Assembly: GCA_964362865.1 (NCBI GenBank)
Contig: CAYIGD010000002.1
Location: forward strand, 4,253 to 68,252
Origin: an uncultured Candidatus Saccharibacteria bacterium
GTDB taxonomy: Bacteria > Patescibacteriota > UBA1384 > JAGVHQ01
Direction: 5' to 3'
Length of the DNA stretch: 64,000 nt
The notes beneath the pieces are model-generated. The model searched no databases and was not told where the DNA came from. It saw nothing but the letters and a program-made list of their open reading frames with translations. This document shows, in pieces, positions 1 through 62,455 of the stretch (position 1 is the first letter of the stretch; every line of letters begins with the position of its first letter). The position numbers and the translations under genes were made by a program.

Positions 1-37
1 TGGGAATCGTGATTACGTCTCGTAAAAAGGAGTAACA

Positions 38-2026
38 ATGGTACATGCGCGCCTCTACTTTATCGCAGTGTGCATCCTTGCCGTACTGGCGTTATTTGCC
101 TATCTGATATTGTGGCGCCCGATAATTTTCACCAGCAACGTGATTATTGACGGGGACTACTCCGTTGGCCGCCGGGCAGTTGTGATGAAAGGCGGGGCAA
201 CGCTGACAGTTAAAGGCAGCTTGACGGTGAATGGGTACCTTGGTTGCAAAGACGGGGGATTAGAGGTAACCGTTGTCGGCGATTTTGTGCTCAACGATAC
301 AATCGCCTGCCAACGTGTTGTATCAGATGACGCAAGTGCCATTGCTCCCCAAGGGGTGGCCCTTGTCGTCGGCGGATCAGCAGAGTTTCAAAGTAATTCA
401 GTGGTAGCAAGTAACGGCCATGTTCAAATTGTACCCACGGCTGAGGATCTTTTAACCGAACAAGAACTTGATCAAGCATTCGACGAGATCGGTGAAGATT
501 CAGGTGATGAACCTCGGATTGGGCCTCTCGGTTCACTGGGTAAGGATAGCGTACCTGACCAAGGGACGCAGACGCGCTCGAAACCGGTCAGTACATTGAA
601 TCATTTGCCAACTCAAATTCTTCCCGGAAAATCCTCGCTGATTGCACGCGTGCGAGCGCAGGGTCCGATCCAGCGGATCCTCATCGGCGGCACGTTGTAT
701 GTTGGTTCGAGGGACAAGCCGCTCCCGAAATGGATTGACGTGAAAAAACTCCCCAAGAAAGTAAAACGGGTTGTCGTGCGGGCGTATTTCCCCAATGGGG
801 ATGTCGAGTTTAGGGACAAGAGCGTGATCCTTTCACCAGATGGGCAAGACGGCCCTGATATCACAGGTGGATGCGACATCAATGTCCCTAAGCAAGAGAG
901 TGAAGCCGATAGAAAGGCACGCGACGCGATGCGCATGCGGGTGATGGCTCGCAACATTACGATTGGGGAGCTCGATTTGTATTTAGGTGATGGTGGACGG
1001 GGCGGGAACGCAACTACCGATCCAGATTGCGACCCGATCGGTAAAGCGATTGCTGGGCACGGTGGCCAATCAGGCAATTTCAAGATGAATACTGCCACTG
1101 GTGGGGCGCTCAAGATTCGAGGTCCGTTTCGAATTCATCCCGGCGTATCAGGCGCTGGCGGGGCTGCGACCGCGTACGGTAGAGATGGCAAAAACGGTGA
1201 AATCGGTGAAAACGGAAAAGCGGCCATAGCCGCCGGGGGGAATGGCGCGGATAACATCAAGGCTTTACGCGCGCGCGGCATAGCTGATTTACAAAATATT
1301 TACATTGATTCCCTCATTGCTGGTGACGGCGGAGACGGCATCGCGAGCCCGGGCGACGGCGGGGACAGTTCCAAATGTGATACGAAAGGCGGATTGCCCG
1401 GTGCGGGCGGCGCAAGCGGAGGGGCAGGTGGAACAGCGCGGCTTGATTACCCACTTCAGGTACGCGACATTCCCAGTGCGGTTGATCAAGATGGCTTGGA
1501 CGGAAATCCAATCATAGACGACGCAAACCCGGGAGCAGATGGTCCCCCCTGTGCGGGTGGGGATGGGAGAGTTCCAGATAAGACAAGCGTAACAGAGCCA
1601 ACAAAGACACCATCCAAAACCGATGGCGGATCCTCGTCAGGAAATGATGCTGTAAAAACGCCCACTCCAGCGCCGACCCCACCAACGCCGACCGTAGTCA
1701 AAGCCCTGGGCAAATTTGAGTTTCTTGATTCGCAATTCCAGCCGATAATTAATCTCCCAACCAGCTCACAGGTAGCGGTCCATATTATTGTTGCCAGTAC
1801 CGGTGGGAACCCCGATATCCGCCTCTACTTGCCGATTACGCTCGAGCTAAAGTCGGACGGCCAAGTTGTCTGGACTGGCACGATCGCCAATGACCCTGTC
1901 CTGAATTGTCGCGGCGCCGATGGCTGTAGTATGGATGGGCCAACAATCAGTGCGGCTTGGATAAAGAAACAATTGAAAGCGACCGGCAAAAACGGGGAGA
2001 TCCTCGCCACGTATTCCGAGCAGTAA
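38..2026 (+). CDS. Hypothetical membrane-anchored surface protein with beta-helix-like repeats, Gly/Asp-rich collagen-like runs, a Pro/Thr linker and a C-terminal domain
   Basis: 662 aa ORF with an N-terminal hydrophobic helix (LYFIAVCILAVLALFAYLILW). Repeats such as TVKGSLTVNGYLGCKDGGLEVTVVGDF are followed by Gly-X-Y-like runs (GKNGEIGENGKA, GDGGDGIASPGDGGDSS, GLPGAGGASGGAGGTA), a TPTPAPTPPTPT linker and a C-terminal domain of about 100 aa. I recognise no family. Confidence 0.6.
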   Translation: MVHARLYFIAVCILAVLALFAYLILWRPIIFTSNVIIDGDYSVGRRAVVMKGGATLTVKGSLTVNGYLGCKDGGLEVTVVGDFVLNDTIACQRVVSDDASAIAPQGVALVVGGSAEFQSNSVVASNGHVQIVPTAEDLLTEQELDQAFDEIGEDSGDEPRIGPLGSLGKDSVPDQGTQTRSKPVSTLNHLPTQILPGKSSLIARVRAQGPIQRILIGGTLYVGSRDKPLPKWIDVKKLPKKVKRVVVRAYFPNGDVEFRDKSVILSPDGQDGPDITGGCDINVPKQESEADRKARDAMRMRVMARNITIGELDLYLGDGGRGGNATTDPDCDPIGKAIAGHGGQSGNFKMNTATGGALKIRGPFRIHPGVSGAGGAATAYGRDGKNGEIGENGKAAIAAGGNGADNIKALRARGIADLQNIYIDSLIAGDGGDGIASPGDGGDSSKCDTKGGLPGAGGASGGAGGTARLDYPLQVRDIPSAVDQDGLDGNPIIDDANPGADGPPCAGGDGRVPDKTSVTEPTKTPSKTDGGSSSGNDAVKTPTPAPTPPTPTVVKALGKFEFLDSQFQPIINLPTSSQVAVHIIVASTGGNPDIRLYLPITLELKSDGQVVWTGTIANDPVLNCRGADGCSMDGPTISAAWIKKQLKATGKNGEILATYSEQ

Positions 2027-2075
2027 CTTTTTTGCTTTTACGGTATTTCCACTACTTTGAAGTACAATACGAACG

Positions 2076-2525
2076 ATGATGAAATTAGTTTCGCCAGATA
2101 TCGGCCACGAAAAGCCTATCATTGCTCAGTTTACCTGCGATGGGAAAAATATCGGGCCTATCCTTGCGATTGAAGGTGTTCCGAAAAGTACAAAAGCTTT
2201 TGCATTAATTCTGCACGACCCCGATGCGGTGAACGGCGACTTTCTGCACTGGAGCGTTTGGAACATTCCGCCCGATACTAAAACCTTTTCCGCGCAGAGT
2301 TTGCCACCCGGATGCCAAGAGGGTACAACTGATTTTAGCAAAGTTGGTTACGGCGGCCCCTGCCCCCCGAGCGGTACCGGAACGCATCGGTATATGTTTG
2401 AACTGTATGCGCTGCGGGAATTGCTTCAATTACCAGAGGGATCAGATCGAAAGACACTCGAAAACGCGCTTGCGACACGCGCGATCGAAAAGACGGTTCT
2501 AACCGGCCTCTATAGTCGAATGTAA
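2076..2525 (+). CDS. YbhB/YbcL-family phosphatidylethanolamine-binding protein (PEBP)
   Basis: Contains LILHDPDAV...HW and GYGGPCPPSGTGTHRYMFELYAL, which match the DPDAP and G-P-PP-G-HRY-F-YAL PEBP signature motifs. Confidence 0.75.
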   Translation: MMKLVSPDIGHEKPIIAQFTCDGKNIGPILAIEGVPKSTKAFALILHDPDAVNGDFLHWSVWNIPPDTKTFSAQSLPPGCQEGTTDFSKVGYGGPCPPSGTGTHRYMFELYALRELLQLPEGSDRKTLENALATRAIEKTVLTGLYSRM

Positions 2526-2543
2526 CAGGTTGCGCTACGATAT

Positions 2544-3059
2544 ATGCACGCAATGATTAAGATTCGCTTTTTTCCGCGGAAAGCATTTACGCTTGTTGAA
2601 CTATTAGTTGTTGTCGCTATAATTGCACTTCTCGCATCACTCATACTTTTTGTCGTCAGCGGGGCAAGGGCAAAAGCGCGCGACAGCGTACGTAAATCGG
2701 AAATCAGCCAGATCGGACAATTCATGTCTCTCTCGTGTTTTGTGCCCCAAGCGGGCGCGGGCGAGTACGACCTAGCAGAAATCGCCCAAGAACTGAAAAC
2801 AAAATACACGGGTTTTGAGCGGTTGTTTAAGAGAATCCCGAAAGACCCGCGGATTGGTACGGATGCACAAACATTTTACCGTTATCTGGTAACTGACGGG
2901 GGTTCTGGTTGCGCGATGTACGCCAATTTAGAAAACAAAAATGAGCCAGTCACGTTGCCCGAACTTACGAACCCTACCGCCGGCGGTGGAAAGGGAGTAT
3001 TCCAGGCAGCCGTTGAGGGCTGGAATAATTCTGACCGCTTTTTTCAGGACTCTAACTAA
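2544..3059 (+). CDS. Type IV pilin / pseudopilin-like protein with a prepilin N-terminal methylation domain
   Basis: Short basic leader followed by FTLVELLVVVAIIALLASLI, with Glu at +5 of the mature protein. Ala rather than Gly sits at -1. Two Cys residues lie in the C-terminal half. The stop codon overlaps the leuS ATG (TAATG). Confidence 0.6.
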   Translation: MHAMIKIRFFPRKAFTLVELLVVVAIIALLASLILFVVSGARAKARDSVRKSEISQIGQFMSLSCFVPQAGAGEYDLAEIAQELKTKYTGFERLFKRIPKDPRIGTDAQTFYRYLVTDGGSGCAMYANLENKNEPVTLPELTNPTAGGGKGVFQAAVEGWNNSDRFFQDSN

Positions 3060-5485
3060 TGGAGCGCTATCGTCCGCAAGAAATCGAAGAAAAATGGCGT
3101 AAGACTTGGGAGCGGGAAAAGCTTTACCGAACTGCCAAAGACCCCAAGAAAAAATATTACTGTTTAGATATGTTCCCCTATCCCTCGGGAGATGGGCTGC
3201 ACGTTGGGCACTGGCGCGGGTACGTACTTTCGGACATGTGGGCGCGTTACCAAAAGATGCGCGGGTATGACGTACTGCATCCGATCGGCTTTGACGCATT
3301 TGGTTTGCCGGCCGAAAATGCGGCGATTCAACGTAAATCCCATCCGAAAAAATTTACGCAAGAAGCGATCGGGCGTATTCGTGGACAACTCAAAGAAATC
3401 GGTACGCTGTATGATTGGGAACGTGAAATTATCACGAGCGATCCCGCCTATTACAAATGGACGCAGTGGCTTTTTCTTATGCTGTATAAACAGGGCCTTG
3501 CCTACCGTAAAAAAGCGCTGGTGAATTGGTGCCCTTCAGACCAAACTGTTCTGGCCAATGAACAGGTTGTGGACGGAAAGTGCGAGCGCTGCGATACGGC
3601 CGTTGAAAAACAAGAGCGCGAGCAGTGGTTTTTCAAGATTACAAAGTATGCCCAAGAATTACTAAATGATTTAGAAAAACTGGAGTGGCCAGAACGAGTA
3701 AAGACCCTGCAGCGTAATTGGATCGGACGCTCTGAGGGCGCGTTATTGAGCTTTGCGATTGCAGATACTAAGGAAAAAATTGAAGTGTTTACTACTCGAC
3801 CGGATACGCTTTTCGGCTGCACATATCTCGTGCTAGCCCCCGAGCATCCGCTTCTTGAAAAAATTACTCTTGCTGCAAATAAACCAAGCGTTGCAGCATA
3901 TCGTAAAACGGCAAGCGCGCTTTCGGAGCTGGAGCGTGTGGCGGAAAAGCGCGAGAAAACGGGAGTTAATCTTGGAGCTTTCGCATTGCATCCCGTAACG
4001 AAAGAGAAACTTCCCATTTTTGTGGCTGATTATGTTGTGATGGGCTACGGTACGGGCGCGATTATGGCCGTGCCCGCGCACGACCTGCGTGATTTTGAGT
4101 TTGCTAAAAAATATAACCTACCGATCAAATTAATCATTGATCCAGTTGTAATGATTTTTCATTCAGGAACTGACAACCACGCTACATTATCAGGAAAAGA
4201 GAAAGAGCCATTCTATCAGGGAGAAAAATGTTATCCCCATCACGGACGAATAATAAATTCGCCATTATTTGAAGGGTATGACTCTTTGGCGAATAAACAT
4301 GAGATTATTTCTATTATCGAAGATAAAAAGATTGGAGAACGAAAAATTATTTATCGCCTGCGCGACTGGCTGATTTCACGCCAGCGCTATTGGGGCGCGC
4401 CGATCCCGATTGTCTATTGTCAAAAGTGCGGCATTCAGCCGGTTGCCGAAAAAGACCTGCCCGTTATTCTGCCGCACGACGCGGATTTTAAGCCTACCGG
4501 CGAATCCCCGCTTGCTCGGCATGCGACTTTTACGAAAACAACGTGCCCGAATTGCAACGGTACGGCGCGGCGCGAAACGGACACAATGGACACGTTTGTG
4601 GACTCCTCGTGGTATTTTTTACGCTATACCGACCCGTACAATACAACAGAAGCATTTTCTCAAGAAGAGCTTAAAAAATGGCTACCTGTAGATATGTACG
4701 TGGGCGGGATCGAGCATGCCATCCTGCACCTTCTATACGCGCGTTTTATTACGAAAGCACTTGCGGATGCTAAGCTCGTTGGGTTCCGAGAACCTTTCAC
4801 GCGCCTGTTTAATATCGGGATTGTGTATTTGCATGGGGCAAAAATGAGCAAGTCGAAGGGTAACGTGGTGAATCCCGATGAGCTCGTCGCGCACTTTGGC
4901 GCAGACACGCTGCGGGGATACGAACTATTTCTGGGTCCGGCGGATAAAGATGTGGAATGGAATCCGCGCGCGATAACGGGAATCTATCGGTTTCTTGAGC
5001 GAATATGGGAGATTAGCGGAAACGTTGGGGACCACACTGATTCGCCTGCGCGCACGAAAAAACTTATTTTTGAGGTGACGCGCGAAATCGAAGGCCTGCG
5101 GCCCAATACCGCCCTTGCGCGCCTCATGTCGATCAGTCATGACTACGCTCACAACACACCGAACAAAGCGGAATTTGCACTTTATGTGCAACTGTTGGCG
5201 CCGTTTTTCCCACATCTTGCCGAAGAGCTGTGGCATGCTCTTGGAAAATCAGATTCAATTTTTAACTCCCGCTGGCCAGAAGGAGAAGAACATCTCGATG
5301 GGCAGTTAACGATTGTGGTGCAAGTAAACGGCAAGTTGCGCGCGACGGTTGCTCTACCCCGCGACATTACACGTAAAGCATTAGAGGAGCGCACACGTGC
5401 GGGTATTGAGCGTCACATTCAGGGCAAATCGGTGAAAAAAGTAATTGTCGTAGATGGTCGTCTAGTTAATTTTGTAGTACAGTAA
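3059..5485 (+). CDS. leuS: Leucyl-tRNA synthetase
   Basis: 808 aa with the class I HVGH motif (HVGHWRGY) and KMSKS (KMSKSKGN). Collinear with bacterial LeuS, including ERKIIYRLRDWLISRQRYWGAPIP. Confidence 0.97.
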   Translation: MERYRPQEIEEKWRKTWEREKLYRTAKDPKKKYYCLDMFPYPSGDGLHVGHWRGYVLSDMWARYQKMRGYDVLHPIGFDAFGLPAENAAIQRKSHPKKFTQEAIGRIRGQLKEIGTLYDWEREIITSDPAYYKWTQWLFLMLYKQGLAYRKKALVNWCPSDQTVLANEQVVDGKCERCDTAVEKQEREQWFFKITKYAQELLNDLEKLEWPERVKTLQRNWIGRSEGALLSFAIADTKEKIEVFTTRPDTLFGCTYLVLAPEHPLLEKITLAANKPSVAAYRKTASALSELERVAEKREKTGVNLGAFALHPVTKEKLPIFVADYVVMGYGTGAIMAVPAHDLRDFEFAKKYNLPIKLIIDPVVMIFHSGTDNHATLSGKEKEPFYQGEKCYPHHGRIINSPLFEGYDSLANKHEIISIIEDKKIGERKIIYRLRDWLISRQRYWGAPIPIVYCQKCGIQPVAEKDLPVILPHDADFKPTGESPLARHATFTKTTCPNCNGTARRETDTMDTFVDSSWYFLRYTDPYNTTEAFSQEELKKWLPVDMYVGGIEHAILHLLYARFITKALADAKLVGFREPFTRLFNIGIVYLHGAKMSKSKGNVVNPDELVAHFGADTLRGYELFLGPADKDVEWNPRAITGIYRFLERIWEISGNVGDHTDSPARTKKLIFEVTREIEGLRPNTALARLMSISHDYAHNTPNKAEFALYVQLLAPFFPHLAEELWHALGKSDSIFNSRWPEGEEHLDGQLTIVVQVNGKLRATVALPRDITRKALEERTRAGIERHIQGKSVKKVIVVDGRLVNFVVQ

Positions 5486-5738: not shown

Positions 5739-6178
5739 ACCGGCATCTTTCGCGCATGATCCTTATGCAGTCGCTCTACGAATGGGATGTGCGACCGAGC
5801 GAAAAACTGGATGAAATAATTGAACGCAACATCGCTCAATACGACGCAGAGGTTGATTTGGATTTCATCAATTCGCTTAAGCTTGGAATCCAAAAAGATC
5901 ATGATAAAATTGATGCCCTATTGATGAAAGCCGCGCCAGAATGGCCGATTGATCAAGTAGCGGTGATTGATAAGGTTATCCTGAGGATTTCGATTTACGA
6001 GCTTTTGTTTGACAACCAAGTTCCTGCAAAGGTTGCAATCAATGAAGCCGTGGAACTGGCGAAATCATTTGGGGGGGAGAACTCATCGAAATTTGTAAAT
6101 GGTGTGCTCGGGACACTCTATCGTGAAAGTGATCGCTTCGTTGCGGAGGATGATGTTAAAGACCGAGCTACTAACTAA
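5735..6178 (+). CDS. nusB: Transcription antitermination factor NusB
   Basis: MQSLYEWDV... and KVAINEAVELAKSFGGENSSKFVNGVLG match the NusB family consensus. Confidence 0.85.
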   Translation: MNRHLSRMILMQSLYEWDVRPSEKLDEIIERNIAQYDAEVDLDFINSLKLGIQKDHDKIDALLMKAAPEWPIDQVAVIDKVILRISIYELLFDNQVPAKVAINEAVELAKSFGGENSSKFVNGVLGTLYRESDRFVAEDDVKDRATN

Positions 6179-7603: not shown

Positions 7604-8413
7604 TTAGTTCTGCAATATTCCTTGGCGTAGCAACTGGTTCAATAACAAAGAAGTTTGTTGGAAGCGTTCTGCCTGGGTGGGTGTGCCCATCACAAGGGTA
7701 ATGATCGCAGGATCTGATTCGGTAAGGCCGAGCAAGTGAGCTCCAGTTTCAGGTAAATAGCCCGTTTTTATCCCTGAAAGTCCCTTACCGAGAAGTTGAT
7801 TTGTGCTTGAGTAAACTCGATTTTCGAACGTGAATGTTTTCTGAGAGACAATTTCTTTGAGCAAGGGGTTTCGCACTACAAGAGCGCCGATTAATAGCAT
7901 ATTTTGAACAGAGCTTATGTTGTGCGGATTAAGTCCGGTTGGCTCGACGATTTCAGTTGCAGTTAAACCGAGTTGTTGCGGAAGTTCTCGAGCAGCAGAA
8001 AAATTAACGCTTCCAAGAATTGCAGCGGCGTCGTTGCCGGATGAGATGAGGGTGGCCTGCAATGCATCGGAAAACGTAATGTTTGATTTTGGTATAAACC
8101 CAATCAAGGGAGCAGGAGTTGGCAGTTCTTCTGGTACCAAAAGCTGATCTGGGTGCGAGGTGTTTTTCAAGGCGGCCAGTGCCGTGAATAATTTTGTAAG
8201 ACTTGCGATTCCGATTGCATCCTGTGAAGAAGAGATGATTTGACCGCTTTGGGGAATATATACACCCCACAGTGGAGCATCCACAGTGAGCGCCGGCTTA
8301 TTAATGATTGATTTTGAATATGAAAAGCGATTTTGAGCAGGGACTGGTTTTGCGGGGAAATTAGTAAGAAGCAGTATCAGGGTTAGGGCGGTGAGCGCAC
8401 CGATTTTTATCAT
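7604..8413 (-). CDS. Secreted D-alanyl-D-alanine carboxypeptidase (peptidase S11 / PBP5-like)
   Basis: Signal peptide, then the three PBP active-site motifs: SxxK (ASLTK), SxN (SSGND) and KTG (IKTGY). Confidence 0.7.
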   Translation of the reverse strand: MIKIGALTALTLILLLTNFPAKPVPAQNRFSYSKSIINKPALTVDAPLWGVYIPQSGQIISSSQDAIGIASLTKLFTALAALKNTSHPDQLLVPEELPTPAPLIGFIPKSNITFSDALQATLISSGNDAAAILGSVNFSAARELPQQLGLTATEIVEPTGLNPHNISSVQNMLLIGALVVRNPLLKEIVSQKTFTFENRVYSSTNQLLGKGLSGIKTGYLPETGAHLLGLTESDPAIITLVMGTPTQAERFQQTSLLLNQLLRQGILQN

Positions 8414-51335: not shown

Positions 51336-52664
51336 CTAGCGCGTGAAATCGGCCTCGAGTGCACCGTCAAAGAGCACGCGATCGTCACGGATGAGGCGTA
51401 GCGTTTCCTCAGTTGCGCCAACCTGCTTCAATACGCGGGTTTTTGAACGGATGGATATGGATGAGGCGTATGAAAGTTCAACGACAGTTGATTGCCCAAC
51501 CGCCGTATCAGCCCAAAAACCGATTATTTTTTGACCATAGCGCAGCGTTGAAGATACTTTTTGCATAATTGGAAACCCCTGCGGGTTCGTTTCAAGCAGA
51601 AACGGATTCTTGCCGATATCTGCTCCGTTTACTAAAATTGCATTCAGTTGGGCGTCAGAGGGCACGATTATCTCCAGATAATTCGCGTCATCTCCATCGG
51701 GCCAAGAATATGAGCCAACATGGGTTCTGGTAATCCGTACATTTGTGAATCGAGCAGCGCCGACTGTTTGTTCATCAATATCTGTGTGCTGTCGAATCGA
51801 CCGCGAACTTTTTGCCTGATCAAGGTTTGCGTTGACAACTGCGAATATGGGTTCGGGGTCGGTCGGGACTCTTCCGGCCCAATTCCACTTCTCGACTCGT
51901 TGCTGATTTTGCGCGTTCCCAAACCAAAAGACGATTTGCTTTTCGCGTGCGAGGCGCGCGACATACCGAGCCAGCGTAACCGCATTTGTTTTTTTTATTT
52001 TTTCCAAGAATGGTGGGATGAGATTAGCAATGATGGTCTTCGGCTCGTTCATGTTAATATTTTCTTCTTGGGCGTAATATCCTTTTTCGACCTCATACTG
52101 AATTTGCGCAAAAAAATTCTCATGCGTTACTGTAAGGTTTTGTTCTGGAATGTAGATCGGCCCGGTGAGCTTCACAAGGGCTTCAGCAGCAGTGAGGGTG
52201 ATACCAATCACTCCATCAATTGATTCGCTCTTCGGCGCACCGTGCTCGTAAAACCACTGAACATGTTGAGCCGAATCGGCAAAGTCGGGATACCAGTTAG
52301 CGTCATGGAGTGCCCATCGGCCTTCATGATTAACGCGGCGAAGTGGTTCAGGGGGCTCCACTATATTTTCGGTAATAAAAGCGTTGTCACGTTTGTAGAT
52401 GTTTGTTTCAACTGCTAGATCTTTAATTGCGCCGTCTTCAAACTGAACACGAGCAAAACTACCAATAAATCCCCCGCCCGGGCGAATCTCACTATTGTTG
52501 AGAAATAATAAGAGGTACTTGCCAGATTTTGTATTCTGGTATAAACCATACAGATCGACAACCGGGGTAGCGAGCGCAAAAGTCGAGGTGCCCAACGCTA
52601 AAATTATCAGAGTGAGAAGCCCCTTGAGTACGAAGTGCGCGCCCAACCTAGGAGCACGTGCCAT
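51336..52664 (-). CDS. Secreted DUF4012-like protein
   Basis: N-terminal anchor followed by LLLFLNNSEIRPGGGFIGSFA, which resembles the DUF4012 signature (NNAE-R-TGGFIGS). Lies adjacent to polysaccharide-synthesis genes. Confidence 0.55.
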   Translation of the reverse strand: MARAPRLGAHFVLKGLLTLIILALGTSTFALATPVVDLYGLYQNTKSGKYLLLFLNNSEIRPGGGFIGSFARVQFEDGAIKDLAVETNIYKRDNAFITENIVEPPEPLRRVNHEGRWALHDANWYPDFADSAQHVQWFYEHGAPKSESIDGVIGITLTAAEALVKLTGPIYIPEQNLTVTHENFFAQIQYEVEKGYYAQEENINMNEPKTIIANLIPPFLEKIKKTNAVTLARYVARLAREKQIVFWFGNAQNQQRVEKWNWAGRVPTDPEPIFAVVNANLDQAKSSRSIRQHTDIDEQTVGAARFTNVRITRTHVGSYSWPDGDDANYLEIIVPSDAQLNAILVNGADIGKNPFLLETNPQGFPIMQKVSSTLRYGQKIIGFWADTAVGQSTVVELSYASSISIRSKTRVLKQVGATEETLRLIRDDRVLFDGALEADFTR

Positions 52665-52670
52665 CGCCGA

Positions 52671-53282
52671 CTACGCTTCGCGGACGATGTAGAGAACCGT
52701 CCCCCATAAAACGAGTACCGCTAGAGCGGCTCCTAAAAAGCCGGTTAGGGCGAGAAGGCCGATATTAACTTGATTGGCAGAGGTGTACACGGGGGAGGCA
52801 ATAATTTGATATGTATCCTGTTCACCTTGCGATATTTGAGCAAGGCGCTCGCTAAAGATTGTGTGGCTCGCCAGGGCTAGGCGATCAGCATCATCTTTGC
52901 TGCCAGAGCGAAAACGGACAGCTAGGTTTGCCGGGGGGCGTTTTGTAGCGCGGATTAGCTTGCCAACTTTAGCGGGCTTTACGCTCGGTAATTCAACTTG
53001 TGCCGCTCGATATACTTGCTCAACAATTCCAGGGCTTACAAACCACGCTTGAATAATGTCGGCATACTGCTGACTCGCAAGCGTAATGTAATACTGGTCA
53101 TACAGATAGTAATCGGTTTTTTGCTGCGAAAGTGCTGACGATTTACTAACCGTCCAGGTCGTTGCGGCGTCATAGGTTGTGGCAAGACGACTCGTGATGA
53201 CGAATATTAAACCTGCAACAACGATTCCCACACCAACCGCAATCGGAATTGACTTTAGAAATGATTGAAAATCCTTTTTCAT
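52671..53282 (-). CDS. Putative Wzz/CpsC-like polysaccharide chain-length determinant
   Basis: 203 aa with one TM near each terminus and a periplasmic middle. Sits between the DUF4012 gene and a glycosyltransferase. Called on topology and context only. Confidence 0.4.
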   Translation of the reverse strand: MKKDFQSFLKSIPIAVGVGIVVAGLIFVITSRLATTYDAATTWTVSKSSALSQQKTDYYLYDQYYITLASQQYADIIQAWFVSPGIVEQVYRAAQVELPSVKPAKVGKLIRATKRPPANLAVRFRSGSKDDADRLALASHTIFSERLAQISQGEQDTYQIIASPVYTSANQVNIGLLALTGFLGAALAVLVLWGTVLYIVREA

Positions 53283-53286
53283 GCGT

Positions 53287-54378
53287 TTATTTTTTCACAA
53301 GCGGGGCGTACTCGTAAACAGCGCTGCGAACTTCATTTTGAAATCGCCTCCGAGCAAAGCGGCGTGCCGCTTGAACCAGTGCCCCACGATCCCATATCCT
53401 GCGCTGCTCGCGCTCTAAGGCACGAGTTAGTGAAGAAATCGTCGGTTCGGGGAAAAATACTCCGGTCTGGGAGCTTAGGATTTCTTGAGCTCCGCCAGCT
53501 TGATACGCAATTACCGGTCTGCCAGAGGCAAGTGCTTCCACGGCTGTGATCCCAAAGTCTTCTTCTTGGGGGAAGATCAGGGCGCGTGATTTCTTGTATA
53601 GTTGGGGAATCTGTCGGTCCGAGACAAAGCCAAGGAATTTAACGGAGGGTCCCGCATCGTGTTCAAGCGCAGTGCGGCTGCTCCCAATACCAGCAACGAT
53701 GAGCTTGGCGTTGGTCCTCTTGACTGCCCCAATCGCTAGATCAACGCGTTTGTGAGGTTCTAAACGGCTGATTATGAGATACGGCGCGTTAGTTGGAATG
53801 GGAGTAGGTTTGAAACGTTCAATATCTACAGGCGGGTAGATAACGCGCGCGGTACGCCGATAGAACTTTTTGATCCGCTGGGCAACAGTATGGGAATTAG
53901 CAATGAAATGATCTACGCGTTGGGCGGCGTTGTAATCCCACGCGCGAAAAAACGTCGCGCCCAGCGGTAAAAATCGCTCCAGAAGCCGTCCAACATGCTG
54001 GAGCGCCTCATCTCTTTGGTGCCACAAGTACCGTGTTGGGGTGTGACAGTAACAAATGTGTACGGTTTCGGGTTGCGTAATAATGCCTTTGATGAAGCTG
54101 TGGGCACTCGAAATCACGACATCGTATCCGGCAAGGTCGAACTGTTCTACGTGATACGGCATCAGAGCTCGTGCGCGGTTGATGTGGAGGCGGGCCCAGC
54201 GGTGCCGATTCAAGTTGCTCGGGATAATTTTTGCCGCACGAATTCGAGCACTGGTTGTTTTTGGTTCGTACAAAAGCGTAAAGACTGGGGCATCCGGAAA
54301 GACGTCCAGTAGGGCCTCCAGGACACGCTCAGCGCCTCCGTATTTAACTAAGTAGTCATGAACCAGCGCCACGCGCAC
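53287..54378 (-). CDS. Glycosyltransferase family 4 (GT-B, RfaB-like)
   Basis: EDFGITAVEALASGRPVIAYQAGGAQEIL matches the GT4 E-G---EA-A-G-PVI motif. Confidence 0.8.
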   Translation of the reverse strand: MRVALVHDYLVKYGGAERVLEALLDVFPDAPVFTLLYEPKTTSARIRAAKIIPSNLNRHRWARLHINRARALMPYHVEQFDLAGYDVVISSAHSFIKGIITQPETVHICYCHTPTRYLWHQRDEALQHVGRLLERFLPLGATFFRAWDYNAAQRVDHFIANSHTVAQRIKKFYRRTARVIYPPVDIERFKPTPIPTNAPYLIISRLEPHKRVDLAIGAVKRTNAKLIVAGIGSSRTALEHDAGPSVKFLGFVSDRQIPQLYKKSRALIFPQEEDFGITAVEALASGRPVIAYQAGGAQEILSSQTGVFFPEPTISSLTRALEREQRRIWDRGALVQAARRFARRRFQNEVRSAVYEYAPLVKK

Positions 54379-55800
54379 CTAATACGCCCCTTTACCTTTT
54401 AGGACAATCCAGATCGTTTTCAAAAGAATCGTTATATCGAGCCAAATTGACCAGTTCTCAATGTACGTGAGATCGAGTCGGACCCATTCGTCAAATGGGA
54501 TGTCGCTACGGCCGGAAACCTGCCAGAGACCGGTAAGTCCGGGCTTAATATGCAATCGCCGACGTTGCCAGGAAGTATAATGCTCGACTTCTTCCACCAT
54601 CGGGGGGCGGGGGCCGACAAGGCTCATTTCTCCCCGCACGACATTCCATAACTGCGGCAGCTCGTCCAGGCTGGAGCGGCGCACGTAAGAGCCAAAGCGC
54701 GTTACCCTTGGATCCTCTTTCAGTTTAAACATCACCCCGTGGCGTTCCATCAATTCCTGGTGCTGCTCGTTTGCTCCGACGCGCATCGTACGGAACTTAT
54801 AGCAATTGAATGTTTTACGCTCCGAGATGCGCTTCTGAGAGAAAAAGATCGGACCAGAAGAGGTGAGTTTGATCCCCAGCGCGATCGTAAGAAAAACAGG
54901 AAGAAGCAGGAGGATACCGAGCAGTGCCCCGACTAGATCAAAGATGCGTTTGAACACCCGCCCCCAGCCGTCCAATGGAGTCCGCAGGTACGTTACGATT
55001 GGAACCCGGCCGATGGTGGAGGGCTCGACGTTTGTGGCCCGTACCTCATATAAGCTGGGTACGATTCTCACAGTCGCGTGCTCATGCTCGGCGGTTTCCA
55101 GCAGGTTCACGTTCGTTGTTATTGGTAATTGCGGATCCGCGACAAGTACCTCGTCAATTGCGCGAGAGTGTAAGATCTCCTTCAGATCTTCCAGTTTTCC
55201 GATAATCGGGATGCCTTTGAGATTGGCGTTGCTCACGCCTGCTCGGGAACGAATGAGGCCCTTAAGGCGCATCCCTAAAGAGCGATCCGCAAGAATTTCC
55301 TTGACGAGCGCAGCTGCGGTTCCGTTAGTGCCAATGATTACGACACTGCGTACTCCCACCCCATAACGATATAAAAAGCGTTCCAGCGCGAGTAAAAGAA
55401 TGCGTGCCAGCATTACAATCACAATCGAAAAGATCCAAAAATACCCAACAACAAGCCGCGAACTTAAGGTTTGATTGGTGAAGAAGAGGTAACCCACGAT
55501 GAGCGCCACACCGGTTGCGATTCCTAAAAAAAGCCCGGCGAATAGATCAAATCCGCGACGGGACTGCTTGACATTATACAAACCGGCAAGCGCAAAAATA
55601 GCAATCAGGATCGGAATAAAACCGGCGATTAAGCGCAAGAAATCCGGTAGCGGTGCGATTTCAGACAATGGAAAACGCAGCACTCCCCCAAACAATTCGG
55701 GCTGAACGCGCAATTTATACGCTAAAAAAGCCGCTGCAAAGATGCTGAGGGCATCCACGGGGACCTCTAGAACTCGAAAGAAGAGCGCAGATCTTTTCAT
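54379..55800 (-). CDS. Polyprenyl-phosphate sugar phosphotransferase (WbaP/exopolysaccharide priming transferase family)
   Basis: Multi-TM N-terminus plus the C-terminal bacterial sugar transferase domain (GPIFFSQKRISERKTFNCYKFRTM...DELPQLWNVVRGEMSLVGPRP). Confidence 0.85.
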   Translation of the reverse strand: MKRSALFFRVLEVPVDALSIFAAAFLAYKLRVQPELFGGVLRFPLSEIAPLPDFLRLIAGFIPILIAIFALAGLYNVKQSRRGFDLFAGLFLGIATGVALIVGYLFFTNQTLSSRLVVGYFWIFSIVIVMLARILLLALERFLYRYGVGVRSVVIIGTNGTAAALVKEILADRSLGMRLKGLIRSRAGVSNANLKGIPIIGKLEDLKEILHSRAIDEVLVADPQLPITTNVNLLETAEHEHATVRIVPSLYEVRATNVEPSTIGRVPIVTYLRTPLDGWGRVFKRIFDLVGALLGILLLLPVFLTIALGIKLTSSGPIFFSQKRISERKTFNCYKFRTMRVGANEQHQELMERHGVMFKLKEDPRVTRFGSYVRRSSLDELPQLWNVVRGEMSLVGPRPPMVEEVEHYTSWQRRRLHIKPGLTGLWQVSGRSDIPFDEWVRLDLTYIENWSIWLDITILLKTIWIVLKGKGAY

Positions 55801-58427: not shown

Positions 58428-59012
58428 CTAGGGTAAACCGGCAATAATCTGACGGTGTGTTTTTCGGGGTGCAATTTGAGACGCCTCGAAAAGAAACGCT
58501 TCTGCCACAAAACGCTCGGCAGCCTTACGTGAAATTCCGCGCGATTGAAGATAAAAAAGGTACTCGGGATTGATCGGAGCGGCAGTGGCGGCATGCGAGG
58601 CCTTCACCTCGTTTGCTTCGATCTCGAGCGACGGGAAAGCATTTGCGCTCGCCCCCTCGCTTAAAATGAGCGAGTCCTGGCGTAGAAAATCAACGGAGTG
58701 TTGGGCCTGTTTTTCTATTTTAATCATTCCTGCAAAATCAAATTGTGCTGTGTCAGTGACAATTGCCTTTACAAGCGTTTCACTTTTGGTATGGGGGGCT
58801 TTGTGAACTGTATCAACGCGTAGCTTCAGCTCGTTTTGCCCGTTGAGTACTCCCGCTCCGAAGACGCGGCACTGCGCGGCTTCCGCTTTCAGAACTAGCG
58901 TACAACTAAAATTACCGCTAAGTCCAGTAAACGGGATAAAGAAATCCACGGGATTCTGATCGGTAATCGTAATTGTTTGTGAGGGTTTGCTCAGTGCGAG
59001 TACTTTAACCAA
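58428..59012 (-). CDS. sufD: Fe-S cluster assembly protein SufD (short form)
   Basis: SufB/D C-terminal beta-helix. Gene order is sufC-sufB-this-sufS. Only 194 aa. Confidence 0.7.
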   Translation of the reverse strand: MVKVLALSKPSQTITITDQNPVDFFIPFTGLSGNFSCTLVLKAEAAQCRVFGAGVLNGQNELKLRVDTVHKAPHTKSETLVKAIVTDTAQFDFAGMIKIEKQAQHSVDFLRQDSLILSEGASANAFPSLEIEANEVKASHAATAAPINPEYLFYLQSRGISRKAAERFVAEAFLFEASQIAPRKTHRQIIAGLP

Positions 59013-60414
59013 CGCTACCTTCCATTTCCAACAAGATTAGGCGGTTGAGCTCGATGGCGTACTCAAGCGGTAAGGTTTTCACGATCGGCTCAATGAAGCC
59101 GTTGACGACCATCGCGGATGCCTCCGTTTCCGAAAGACCCCTCGAGCGCAGATAAAACAGCTGTTCATCCCCGATTTTACTGACGGTTGCCTCGTGTCCG
59201 ATTGTAACGTTTTTAGCGCGTACCTCAATCGTGGGGTAGGTATCGGAACGGCTTAGCTTGTCCAAGATTAAGGCGTCGCAACGCACTGTTGAGCGCGCGC
59301 TGTCGGCTTGGGGCGTGATATGGAGCAAGCCGCGATATGAGGTGCGTCCACCGCCTTTAGAGATTGACTTAGAGGTAATAAGCGAGGTTGTTTCAGGTGC
59401 GACGTGAATTGCCTTGCCGCCGGCGTCTTGATGCTGACCCGCTCCCGCAAACGCGAGCGATAATACCTCGCCGTGTGCCTTGCGGCCCACCAAATATACA
59501 CTGGGGTATTTCATCGTAACCCGAGAGCCCAAATTCCCGTCAATCCACTCCATAACGCCTTCTTCTTCCACCCGGGCGCGCTTAGTGACAAGGTTGTACA
59601 CATCTTTCGACCAGTTTTGAATCGTAGTATAACGCACTCGCGCGCCTTTTTTGACAAAGATTTCCACTACGGCCGCGTGTAAAGAGTCCGAGGCATAAAC
59701 GGGCGCGGTACAACCCTCGACATAGTGCACGGATGAGCCCTCTTCCGCGACAATCAGGGTCCGCTCAAACTGCCCCATATTCTTGGCGTTAATGCGGAAA
59801 TAAGCCTGGAGCGGTAATTCAACATGCACGCCTGAGGGAATGTACACAAACGATCCGCCTGACCACGCGGCTGAGTTGAGTGCCGCAAACTTATTGTCGG
59901 AAGCTGGAATGAGCTTTCCAAAGTACTGCTGTACGATTTCCGGGTGTTCGCGCAAGCCGGAATCCATGTCGGTAAAGATCACTCCCTGTTTAGAAAGTTT
60001 CTCGTGCACGGAGTGGTAGATCACTTCCGAGTCATACTGCGCGCCCACACCGGCTAGGTATTTTTGTTCGGCCTGAGGAATTCCCAGCCGGTCGAAAGTG
60101 CGTTTCATGCTTGAAGGGACGTCATCCCACGATTTAAGCTGAACGGAGACTGGTTTGAGGTAGTAGAAAATGGTGTCGAAGTTGATTCGCGAAAGATCAG
60201 CGCCCCAAGTGGGCATTTGTTTAGCCTGAAAGGTTTGATAGCTTTGCAAGCGAAACGCCCTCATCCATGAAGGCTCATGCTTGTGGTTCGAGATTGACTC
60301 GACCACGGTACTCGAAAGCCCACGGGGGGCTTTATACACCGATTCCTCAGGTTCGTTAAAACCGAAGCGGTACGTATCGAGTTCGGCAGCGATTTTGTTC
60401 TGGATGCTTTTCAT
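59005..60414 (-). CDS. sufB: Fe-S cluster assembly protein SufB
   Basis: 469 aa, SufB family with a conserved C-terminus (NGFIEPIVKTLPLEYAIELNRLI). Confidence 0.92.
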   Translation of the reverse strand: MKSIQNKIAAELDTYRFGFNEPEESVYKAPRGLSSTVVESISNHKHEPSWMRAFRLQSYQTFQAKQMPTWGADLSRINFDTIFYYLKPVSVQLKSWDDVPSSMKRTFDRLGIPQAEQKYLAGVGAQYDSEVIYHSVHEKLSKQGVIFTDMDSGLREHPEIVQQYFGKLIPASDNKFAALNSAAWSGGSFVYIPSGVHVELPLQAYFRINAKNMGQFERTLIVAEEGSSVHYVEGCTAPVYASDSLHAAVVEIFVKKGARVRYTTIQNWSKDVYNLVTKRARVEEEGVMEWIDGNLGSRVTMKYPSVYLVGRKAHGEVLSLAFAGAGQHQDAGGKAIHVAPETTSLITSKSISKGGGRTSYRGLLHITPQADSARSTVRCDALILDKLSRSDTYPTIEVRAKNVTIGHEATVSKIGDEQLFYLRSRGLSETEASAMVVNGFIEPIVKTLPLEYAIELNRLILLEMEGSVG

Positions 60415-61522: not shown

Positions 61523-62455
61523 ATGTCGACATTGGTTTCCGATATTGGACGGGGGATATTCGGCGGTCAAATGTCGATATTCCTGTATGTGAAAAAGGGG
61601 GGGCGGCTCACTTTTTCGGTAGTTCGCTACCTAGGATTCATCGGTGTGCACCTACCGATGCTCTATGCCCTACTCTGGGTGCTCGACCGTGGCGGGTTAG
61701 AACGCAACCTAGGGGCTGCCTGGTGGGCAATGCTGTTCACCTTTATTGGGATGCGAGTGGGGATGTCACTTGCGGAGTACTTGTTCCACCGGGACATTCT
61801 CCACGCGGCTCCCTGGCCGTGGGTCAACCGCTTTTATAGAGCGCATGAACTCCATCATGCGCTCACGCCGGCCAAGGCCTACGCCATTGAGAAAGAAGAA
61901 CAACTCGAGGCGGCCGTGTTTCCCGCCTACACGCTCCTCGCGTTTTGGGCTGTGTTCAGTTGCCTGATTGTGCCAGGGCAACTGTTAATCCCTCAGGTCC
62001 CCATCTATCTCGGCGGATATATGGCGATCGTTTCGGCGCTGGTTGACTATGAGATCATGCACGCCGCCTTCCATCGGCCCTATGCGTGGTGGCAGCGGTA
62101 CCTGGAGCATTCCCTGCCCTGGGTGCGTTGGATGGCTGACCGAGCATACAAGTACCACCTCATGCACCATGAGTGCAATACGTGCAATGAAGCCATTGCC
62201 GGATGCGGCTATTACGCGGTCTGGGACAAGTGGTTCAAAACACTCAAGATGCCAAAACACCCGCTTGTGGAGGGCACACTCGATCCGCGCGAAGATCTCG
62301 AGGCGCCGATTGCCTCGAGATTTATCCGCAGGCTTGATTGTGCGGTAGCAATTCATCAAGCGATATGGAAGTTGGAAGAAAGTACGGGACAAAAGCTAAC
62401 CCGTGAGGAAAAAAGCAAAATTGTCGCACAAAAAAGAGTTCGCTGCGCGTTGTAG
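61523..62455 (+). CDS. Fatty acid hydroxylase / sterol desaturase superfamily integral membrane protein
   Basis: Hydrophobic N-terminal half with four His boxes: HRDILH, HELHH, HAAFH and HLMHH. A strong RBS (AAGGGGTGAG) lies 6 nt upstream of the ATG. A rho-independent terminator follows immediately. Confidence 0.7.
   Translation: MSTLVSDIGRGIFGGQMSIFLYVKKGGRLTFSVVRYLGFIGVHLPMLYALLWVLDRGGLERNLGAAWWAMLFTFIGMRVGMSLAEYLFHRDILHAAPWPWVNRFYRAHELHHALTPAKAYAIEKEEQLEAAVFPAYTLLAFWAVFSCLIVPGQLLIPQVPIYLGGYMAIVSALVDYEIMHAAFHRPYAWWQRYLEHSLPWVRWMADRAYKYHLMHHECNTCNEAIAGCGYYAVWDKWFKTLKMPKHPLVEGTLDPREDLEAPIASRFIRRLDCAVAIHQAIWKLEESTGQKLTREEKSKIVAQKRVRCAL

Follow-up and report, generated by a model that had tools for sequence, protein, structure and literature searches.

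A membrane-anchored beta-helix protein and its neighbours upstream of leuS in a patescibacterial genome

Does a tightly packed row of genes in front of leuS encode one surface module, or does it line up functionally independent neighbours in a very compact genome? An earlier note on this DNA had suggested the module, made up of a large membrane protein, a PEBP and a pilin, in an episymbiont-type organism. We examined the window, i.e. the whole analysed stretch of 64,000 nucleotides, and found the four open reading frames as that note described them, all on the + strand (as are all features reported below): 38..2026 (662 aa), 2076..2525 (PEBP, 149 aa), 2544..3059 (pilin, 171 aa) and 3059..5485 (leuS, 808 aa). 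Judged by the source names of the homologues and the groundwater metagenome origin, the organism is a Patescibacterium of the episymbiont type, as had been proposed. It is very probable that the first three of these genes do not make up one module.

The reading of the three proteins as one surface or pilus module coupled to leuS, in which the large protein would be a pilus-associated adhesin, can draw on genes that are co-directional and closely spaced with no terminators between them, and on an order that is repeated in one relative (L005), the pilin-leuS pair being found in a further one (L081). It was largely refuted by the comparison of about 120 related loci, and we consider it highly improbable. 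In none of the 70 other genomes with the pilin family was leuS, the PEBP gene or the 662 aa gene located 6 kb or less from the pilin gene, and the neighbours of pilin-family loci were highly variable. Close relatives of the 662 aa gene lacked the PEBP and/or the pilin gene beside it: on their 3' side we found pilin and leuS without PEBP, DUF378 and leuS, or CsoR and copper genes. Distant homologues of the 662 aa protein had no pilin, PEBP, leuS or upstream partner (see below) nearby, and clustering of the neighbours around them, as well as around the pilin family, yielded no conserved partner. The order of the trio is thus not conserved; in one sub-lineage, PEBP and pilin would rather fill a space of changing content that separates the beta-helix gene from leuS. 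Furthermore, no export signal is present in the PEBP, overlapping genes are commonplace in this genome, and the 662 aa protein carries its own membrane anchor, has no prepilin motif and shows no synteny with pilins, which speaks against its role as a pilus-associated adhesin.

The pilin TAA stop does overlap the leuS ATG (TAATG, 3057..3061), with AGGA 9 nt 5' of that ATG. Since pilin and leuS are read in different frames, they overlap by 1 nt and are not translationally fused, contrary to what had been claimed. Nor is the arrangement unusual here: among 58 co-directional ORF pairs across the window, 29 overlap (in 7 cases by 1 nt), and as this is half of all such pairs, the pilin-leuS overlap reflects genome compaction. 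It was kept in two close relatives only (as TGATG, in L005 and L081), one of which lacks the PEBP, and across the loci compared the pilin-leuS link turns out to be a chance product of a single small lineage. When the intergenic spacers were scanned for promoters and terminators and folded as RNA, no signal exceeded that of shuffled controls; because neither a terminator nor a convincing promoter was seen between the genes, all of them may be co-transcribed. The 1-nt overlap would be a by-product of compaction, accompanied by probable co-transcription and translational coupling, with no shared function implied. In streamlined genomes of this kind, neither close packing nor a stop/start overlap should be taken as evidence of functional coupling. 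The downstream gene (3059..5485) was assigned by Pfam and NCBIfam matches to the bacterial-type leucine-tRNA ligases, with 1016.8 bits for TIGR00396 (the leuS_bact equivalog; cut-off 548.4) and with PF13603, PF00133 and PF08264 all matched, as expected of an enzyme with editing and anticodon-binding domains.

The PEBP (2076..2525) matched PF01161 (E=4.2e-35) and TIGR00481 (103.5 bits, cut-off 57.75), which bears out its description as a YbhB/YbcL-type protein. As it has no hydrophobic segment or signal peptide, it is, by its sequence, cytoplasmic and not a surface protein. In these features (both models above cut-off, no signal peptide) it resembles the cytoplasmic E. coli YbhB, but it scores under the equivalog cut-offs NF007609 and NF007330 for E. 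coli YbhB/YbcL and so belongs to the family without being orthologous to a protein of known function. It would be unconnected to the cell surface.

The pilin (2544..3059) probably starts at the second ATG (2553, 168 aa), matching its relatives, and we corrected the start given before (2544, 171 aa) accordingly. It matched PF07963 (29 bits, cut-off 21.2) and TIGR02532 (26.9 bits, cut-off 16.3), and its profile matched solved pilins with E down to 3e-10; the nearest named pilins were T. thermophilus PilA4, a Geobacter pilin, S. sanguinis PilE1, the ETEC CFA/III pilin and PulG/EpsG. The N-terminus reads MIKIRFFPRKA/FTLVELLVVVAIIALLASL (the slash marks the cut): a basic leader ending in RKA, a cleavage site predicted before F15, the motif RKA/FTLVE with Ala at -1, Phe at +1 and Glu at +5, and a hydrophobic stretch. 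Together with 189 homologues across the Patescibacteria, this makes the protein a true class III signal-peptide protein, as had been supposed. The predicted structure (pLDDT 93) has the lollipop fold, with an alpha-1 helix of 47 residues (17-63) on an antiparallel beta-sheet head that carries the invariant C65 and C123. The label "atypical" can be dropped, since Ala at -1 is an accepted alternative prepilin cleavage residue (PMC3244431) and varies within the family, whose consensus is G/FTLIE with Ala in a subset. A T2SSE ATPase gene lies directly 5' of the pilin in two of the loci (L010 and L011), and no genes for T4P machinery or prepilin peptidase were found among the scanned window ORFs. 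The protein would be a normal family member: a prepilin peptidase would cut it after Ala -1, and an assembly machinery whose genes lie at another site would polymerise it.

The 662 aa protein (38..2026) is an uncharacterised protein of ultra-small bacteria from groundwater and belongs to a family of 607 clusters that is apparently confined to Patescibacteria and has no Pfam model. It has one hydrophobic helix only, at the N-terminus (residues 2-25; 41..112), which is also evident on direct reading of the sequence; with no AxA cleavage site behind it, this helix probably stays uncleaved and serves as a signal anchor. In the AF2 model (mean pLDDT 81; 365 residues at 90 or above) the protein forms a parallel beta-helix of stacked three-strand coils. 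In particular, we distinguished N-terminal coils (residues 26-135; 113..442) with the conserved C70 and C91 and an SNGHVQIV motif, a disordered and poorly conserved loop (residues 169-212; 542..673) that ends in a conserved A-x-A-Q motif, and a central beta-helix (residues 213-508; 674..1561) with Gly-rich GxGGxAxA coils from about residue 316. These are followed by a low-complexity Pro/Thr/Ser linker (residues 509-557; 1562..1708; pLDDT<50), with its Pro/Thr part at residues 540-552, and by a C-terminal beta-sandwich (residues 558-662; 1709..2023) with a Cys-x5-Cys loop. Gly and Asp make up 14% and 8.5% of the whole protein and 24% and 11% of residues 300-510, and Gly-X-Y runs are of at most 5 triplets (381-395 and 452-466). 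Sequence and model thus agree with the previous description as a single-pass membrane protein with beta-helix-like repeats, a PT linker and short Gly-X-Y runs.

That the protein falls into no known family was upheld as well: we found no match in Pfam (E up to 1) or NCBIfam, no Pfam match for 38 homologues, nothing significant for the family in a profile search of PDB and a PHROGs search, and no paper on it in literature searches. For the Gly-rich region, we rejected collagen-like (PF01391), RTX beta-roll (PF00353, GGxGxDxUx), chlamydial Pmp (PF02415, GGA[ILV]/FxxN) and bactofilin (DUF583, PF04519) identities, given no Pfam match at E up to 1 and confident beta-helix coils, within which even the longest Gly-X-Y run (5 triplets) sits. 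Of the folds put forward earlier, the beta-helix was therefore recovered, while bactofilin and Pmp were not. A phmmer match of the C-terminal domain to WD40 designer proteins in PDB (E=3e-17) was judged an artefact, because a short motif matches many repeats additively and no single stretch is significant.

In the 187 family members compared, conservation of 80% or more was confined to Gly, Ala, Pro, Cys and Leu positions plus one Asn, and no charged residue reached that level; the polar positions at 55-83% were Asn, Lys, Arg, Asp and Thr, with no invariant acidic pair. Nothing in this pattern points to an enzyme. Conserved Cys pairs are present. The family is most conserved in the central beta-helix, the C-terminal beta-sandwich is exchanged for other domains in distant members, and longer homologues carry fused fn3, PKD or BACON domains. 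The Cys pairs, the fused domains and the domain exchange suggest a setting outside the cell. In the close clade, conservation is as high in the C-terminal domain (79%) as in the helix core (76-79%), thus no fast-evolving binding tip is evident at short range.

A constant neighbour of the 662 aa gene lies on its 5' side; the window start truncates it, and it had gone unnoticed before. The window holds only its 3' end (1..34, ...GIVITSRKKE, stop at 32-34), the full gene being at L001:3708-4349, outside the window, and the Shine-Dalgarno sequence of the 662 aa gene (AAGGAG) lies within its last codons. Its product is a membrane protein: behind the signal peptide come a beta-sandwich and a Ser/Pro linker, followed by a C-terminal TM helix with a basic tail. 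The beta-sandwich is a paralogue of residues 563-661 in the 662 aa protein (E=7e-6). This partner gene was upstream of the 662 aa gene in every close-clade locus in which upstream sequence was included. Its 12 homologues are all at least 50% identical and are limited to the same clade as the close 662 aa relatives.

We propose that the genes of this region stand in a row but function independently of one another. The 662 aa protein would be tethered in the membrane by its uncleaved N-terminal helix and present, outside the cell, a right-handed parallel beta-helix of mostly Gly-rich GxGGxAxA coils, followed by a flexible Pro/Thr linker and a small disulfide-containing beta-sandwich; it would thus act as a rigid stalk bearing a distal binding domain. 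A role as a non-enzymatic surface fibril or adhesin is our tentative assignment, with a chance slightly below even. The protein encoded by the upstream partner gene would probably cooperate with it, perhaps through a pairing between their sandwiches. The composite picture, i.e. independent genes, a beta-helix fibril or adhesin, a cytoplasmic PEBP, a normal pilin and an overlap due to compaction, seems to us evenly balanced between holding and failing as a whole. As the central helix is the best conserved part, a functional site could be there, which counts against the distal-tip model.

Two other functions were weighed against the fibril or adhesin. The beta-helix protein could be a membrane-tethered polysaccharide depolymerase or lyase acting on the host or on its own envelope, much as phage tailspike depolymerases and the PL6/PL9 lyases do; unlike those, it has no conserved catalytic residues, no PHROG match and no Pfam beta-helix enzyme match. 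Pectate-lyase-like/CASH enzymes were likewise rejected (no Pfam match for the query and the 38 homologues, no charged residue at 80% or above in the 187 members), and we regard an enzymatic function as improbable. Slightly less improbable, yet still unlikely, is that the protein and its partner are structural parts of the envelope (wall-spanning or S-layer-associated spacers) and not adhesins. Both proteins are membrane-anchored, the conservation is purely structural (Gly/Ala/Pro/Cys), the family is widespread and the sequences are well conserved within the clade, all of which would suit such spacers; however, swapped modular C-terminal domains and fused PKD, fn3 or BACON domains are more typical of binding proteins, and the gene context has no tie to envelope biogenesis.

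The fibril or adhesin that we prefer would also differ from known beta-helix adhesins. The adhesin domains of two-partner secretion (HMW1, FHA, EtpA, HxuA) share just 8-13% sequence identity with the 662 aa protein, which has no TPS-domain Pfam match and no evident TpsB partner; those proteins are secreted, whereas this one is held by an N-terminal TM helix in an organism without an outer membrane, and its coils are unusually Gly-rich. Assignment to the TpsA adhesins (Haemagg_act plus TpsB) was rejected, with no Pfam match at E up to 1 and a TM anchor as the N-terminus, and no TpsB-like conserved neighbour was seen when the neighbours in the loci were clustered. Among the beta-helix adhesins of monoderms and yeasts that are attached to wall or membrane, PfbA of S. 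pneumoniae and Awp1/Awp3 of Candida glabrata have a C-terminal LPXTG or GPI anchor, in contrast to the N-terminal signal anchor and separate C-terminal beta-sandwich found here, and show no sequence similarity to the 662 aa protein.

Most Patescibacteria are not culturable and, to our knowledge, their host attachment is known for a few Saccharibacteria only, in which type IV pili are involved. A lineage-wide, membrane-anchored beta-helix family with swappable distal domains, at present entirely unannotated, is a concrete candidate for a further attachment device, one that works without pili. It is conceivable, though we hold it unlikely, that the Gly-rich beta-helix family is a principal host-recognition adhesin of Parcubacteria-type episymbionts, with the exchangeable C-terminal domains as determinants of host specificity and the clade-specific upstream paralogue as the membrane protein on which the tip domain docks or which serves as its co-receptor. 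The analogy behind the host-specificity reading is with phage receptor-binding proteins.

We examined the four co-directional ORFs at the beginning of the window (forward strand), and all four agreed with the description in the earlier note: ORF calling gave a 662 aa protein (38..2026), a 149 aa protein (2076..2525), a 171 aa pilin (2544..3059) and leuS (3059..5485; 808 aa). The second ORF indeed encodes a YbhB/YbcL-family PEBP (PF01161, E=4e-35; TIGR00481, 103.5 bits with a cut-off of 57.75), and the fourth corresponded to a bacterial LeuS (TIGR00396, 1017 bits). The PEBP sequence had no hydrophobic segment anywhere, so the protein is predicted to be cytoplasmic and its proposed assignment to the surface does not hold. 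The pilin/leuS junction reads TAATG: the pilin TAA stop overlaps the leuS ATG by 1 nt, as had been noticed, but pilin and leuS are read in different frames and therefore overlap rather than form the translational fusion that had been suggested. In relatives the pilin starts at the second ATG (2553), giving 168 aa. The overlap was retained, in the form TGATG, in two homologous loci (L005 and L081), which points to inheritance within a single small sub-lineage.

The earlier note had considered this arrangement unusual. Nevertheless, 29 of the 58 co-directional neighbouring ORF pairs in the window overlapped (7 by 1 nt and 12 by 4 nt), so the TAATG junction is the norm in this genome; the coding fraction of the window was 97% (greedy ORF set). 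No terminator or convincing promoter was found between the genes, and their co-transcription is therefore possible, but it would be no more than a result of the packing. The longest rnc ORF overlapped nusB by 80 nt (6099-6178); the annotation of L005 has a 26-nt overlap, so rnc probably begins at a later start codon.

Two models of the prepilin N-terminal methylation motif, PF07963 and TIGR02532, matched the pilin above their cut-offs. Its sequence, …RKA|FTLVELLVVV…, has Ala (-1) and Glu (+5) where the first reading had placed them, and Phe at +1. The family is well conserved: of the 189 homologues recovered, about 65 were full-length (42-85% identity), and the -1 residue was Gly by consensus and Ala in several members. 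Cleavage by PilD takes place at Gly or Ala (PMC3244431); contrary to what had been claimed, the pilin is thus not atypical, apart from its lineage-specific head. Pilin genes need not adjoin the machinery genes (PMC3244431), and no pilus machinery genes were found among the scanned ORFs of the rest of the window.

We then took 70 loci of the pilin family from species-representative Patescibacteria genomes and used LeuS, PEBP and the 662 aa protein as queries against them. In no locus did a gene for any of the three lie within 6 kb, and the proposal of a surface trio coupled to leuS was not supported. The neighbours were highly variable housekeeping genes; two loci had a T2SSE pilus ATPase (PilB/PilT-type) directly upstream of the pilin (L010, ~2380-3537; L011, 4832-6013, PF00437 E=2.5e-113), while in the other 68 they were mostly unrelated housekeeping genes. 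For the 662 aa family we used 46 metagenome loci and six contigs, comprising a close clade (61-73% identity) and distant homologues (31-38%). Gene content downstream of the 662 aa gene was variable in the close clade, and the full order PEBP, pilin and leuS of the window was seen in L005. In particular, L081 had the pilin and leuS without PEBP (slot at 3900-4654), L004 a DUF378 gene on the minus strand (slot at 8068-8298) followed by leuS, L080 a spacer of ~490 nt (slot at 3271-3765) followed by leuS, and L002, L003, L078 and L079 had CsoR and copper-ATPase genes. None of these genes was found near the distant homologues. Between the beta-helix gene and leuS there is thus a slot that serves as a variable insertion point, and the three genes very probably do not make up one functional unit. 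This slot is a local gene-turnover hotspot adjoining the conserved leuS-L32-nusB-rnc block.

In the close clade only one neighbouring gene was conserved, on the other side of the 662 aa gene: every locus with upstream sequence had a gene of ~180-210 aa ending 0-2 nt ahead of the 662 aa gene start, or overlapping it. The window contains only its last codons (1-34; full gene L001:3708-4349), within which sits AAGGAG, the 662 aa gene's ribosome-binding site. The encoded protein starts with a signal peptide, which is followed by a beta-sandwich, a Ser/Pro linker, a TM helix near the C-terminus and a basic tail. Its beta-sandwich and residues 563-661 of the 662 aa protein are homologous (E=7e-6) and have a Cys-x5-Cys loop in common. 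Only 12 homologues of the gene product were found, all at least 50% identical, indicating that this gene arose together with the C-terminal domain of the close clade. The upstream paralogue is likely an interaction partner of the 662 aa protein.

The 662 aa protein had a single hydrophobic helix, at the N-terminus, a Gly/Asp-rich region (residues 300-510, where Gly makes up 24% and Asp 11%), Gly-X-Y runs of five triplets at most and a PT linker (residues 540-552), all features already noticed, and it matched no Pfam or NCBIfam model. AlphaFold2, based on a 38-homologue alignment, predicted a beta-helix fold (mean pLDDT 81; 365 residues at 90 or above) with a TM helix (2-25), beta-helix coils (26-135), a short helix, a disordered loop (169-212), a long beta-helix (213-508), the disordered PT linker (between 508 and 558) and a beta-sandwich (558-662). 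The variable loop (window 542-673) ends in an A-x-A-Q motif, whose A207 is conserved in at least 90% of the 38 homologues; it resembles a signal-peptidase-type site, but no TM segment precedes it, and it may be a processing site.

An exhaustive profile search for the family retrieved 607 clusters (50% identity level) at E<=1e-3, and 188 at E<=1e-30. A protein identical to ours was present on a contig of a Hainich groundwater metagenome, and named homologues came from Parcubacteria, Kerfeldbacteria or "Patescibacteria group"; the family is unannotated and seems to be confined to Patescibacteria. Longer members contained fn3, PKD or BACON domains. In distant members of the 38-homologue alignment (A1), the C-terminal sandwich was swapped for a HWHA…DPGPQCGYG module (~70 aa; e.g. 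P0012, P0014, P0025) or an Ig-like FTCQLxxY module (P0019, P0029, P0036), neither with a Pfam match. Among close-clade members, C-terminal domain and helix core were equally well conserved (79% and 76-79% identity), and the N-terminal coils (60%) and linkers (34-39%) were more variable.

Positions conserved in at least 80% of 187 members were Gly, Ala, Pro, Cys, Leu and one Asn, forming repeated GxGGxAxA corners, and the polar residues R299, N347, K349, N406, K408 and N420 reached only 55-83%, a pattern more in keeping with Asn ladders and structural contacts than with catalytic residues. A tethered depolymerase seems improbable, and a structural role in the envelope is only slightly less so. 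The protein has an N-terminal anchor that is probably not cleaved, extracellular cysteines that are conserved, and a rigid beta-helix joined by a flexible linker to an exchangeable distal domain, and it shows no catalytic signature; taken together, these features best fit a surface fibril or adhesin, which we propose tentatively. The family builds on a known fold but has a Gly-rich repeat of an unusual kind and is anchored in the membrane by its N-terminus, a combination in which it differs from TPS, autotransporter, LPXTG or GPI beta-helix adhesins.

The remaining window contained housekeeping genes (L32/NusB/RNase III, PheST, a ribosomal operon, EF-Tu/G, RpoBC, Obg, IF2 and GyrAB), along with a Suf system and a small cluster of envelope-glycan genes. 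The group to which this organism belongs is generally regarded as lacking lipid biosynthesis; a fatty-acid hydroxylase superfamily protein was encoded at 61523-62455 (+; PF04116, E=7e-9). The glycan cluster (51336-55800, -) included a DUF4012 protein, a 203 aa ORF without a family, a GT4 glycosyltransferase and a Bac_transf initiating sugar transferase. Finally, the Suf operon (58428-60414, -) encoded a SufD-like protein of just 194 aa, which covers only the C-terminal portion of the SUFBD core; the adjacent SufB is full-length (469 aa).
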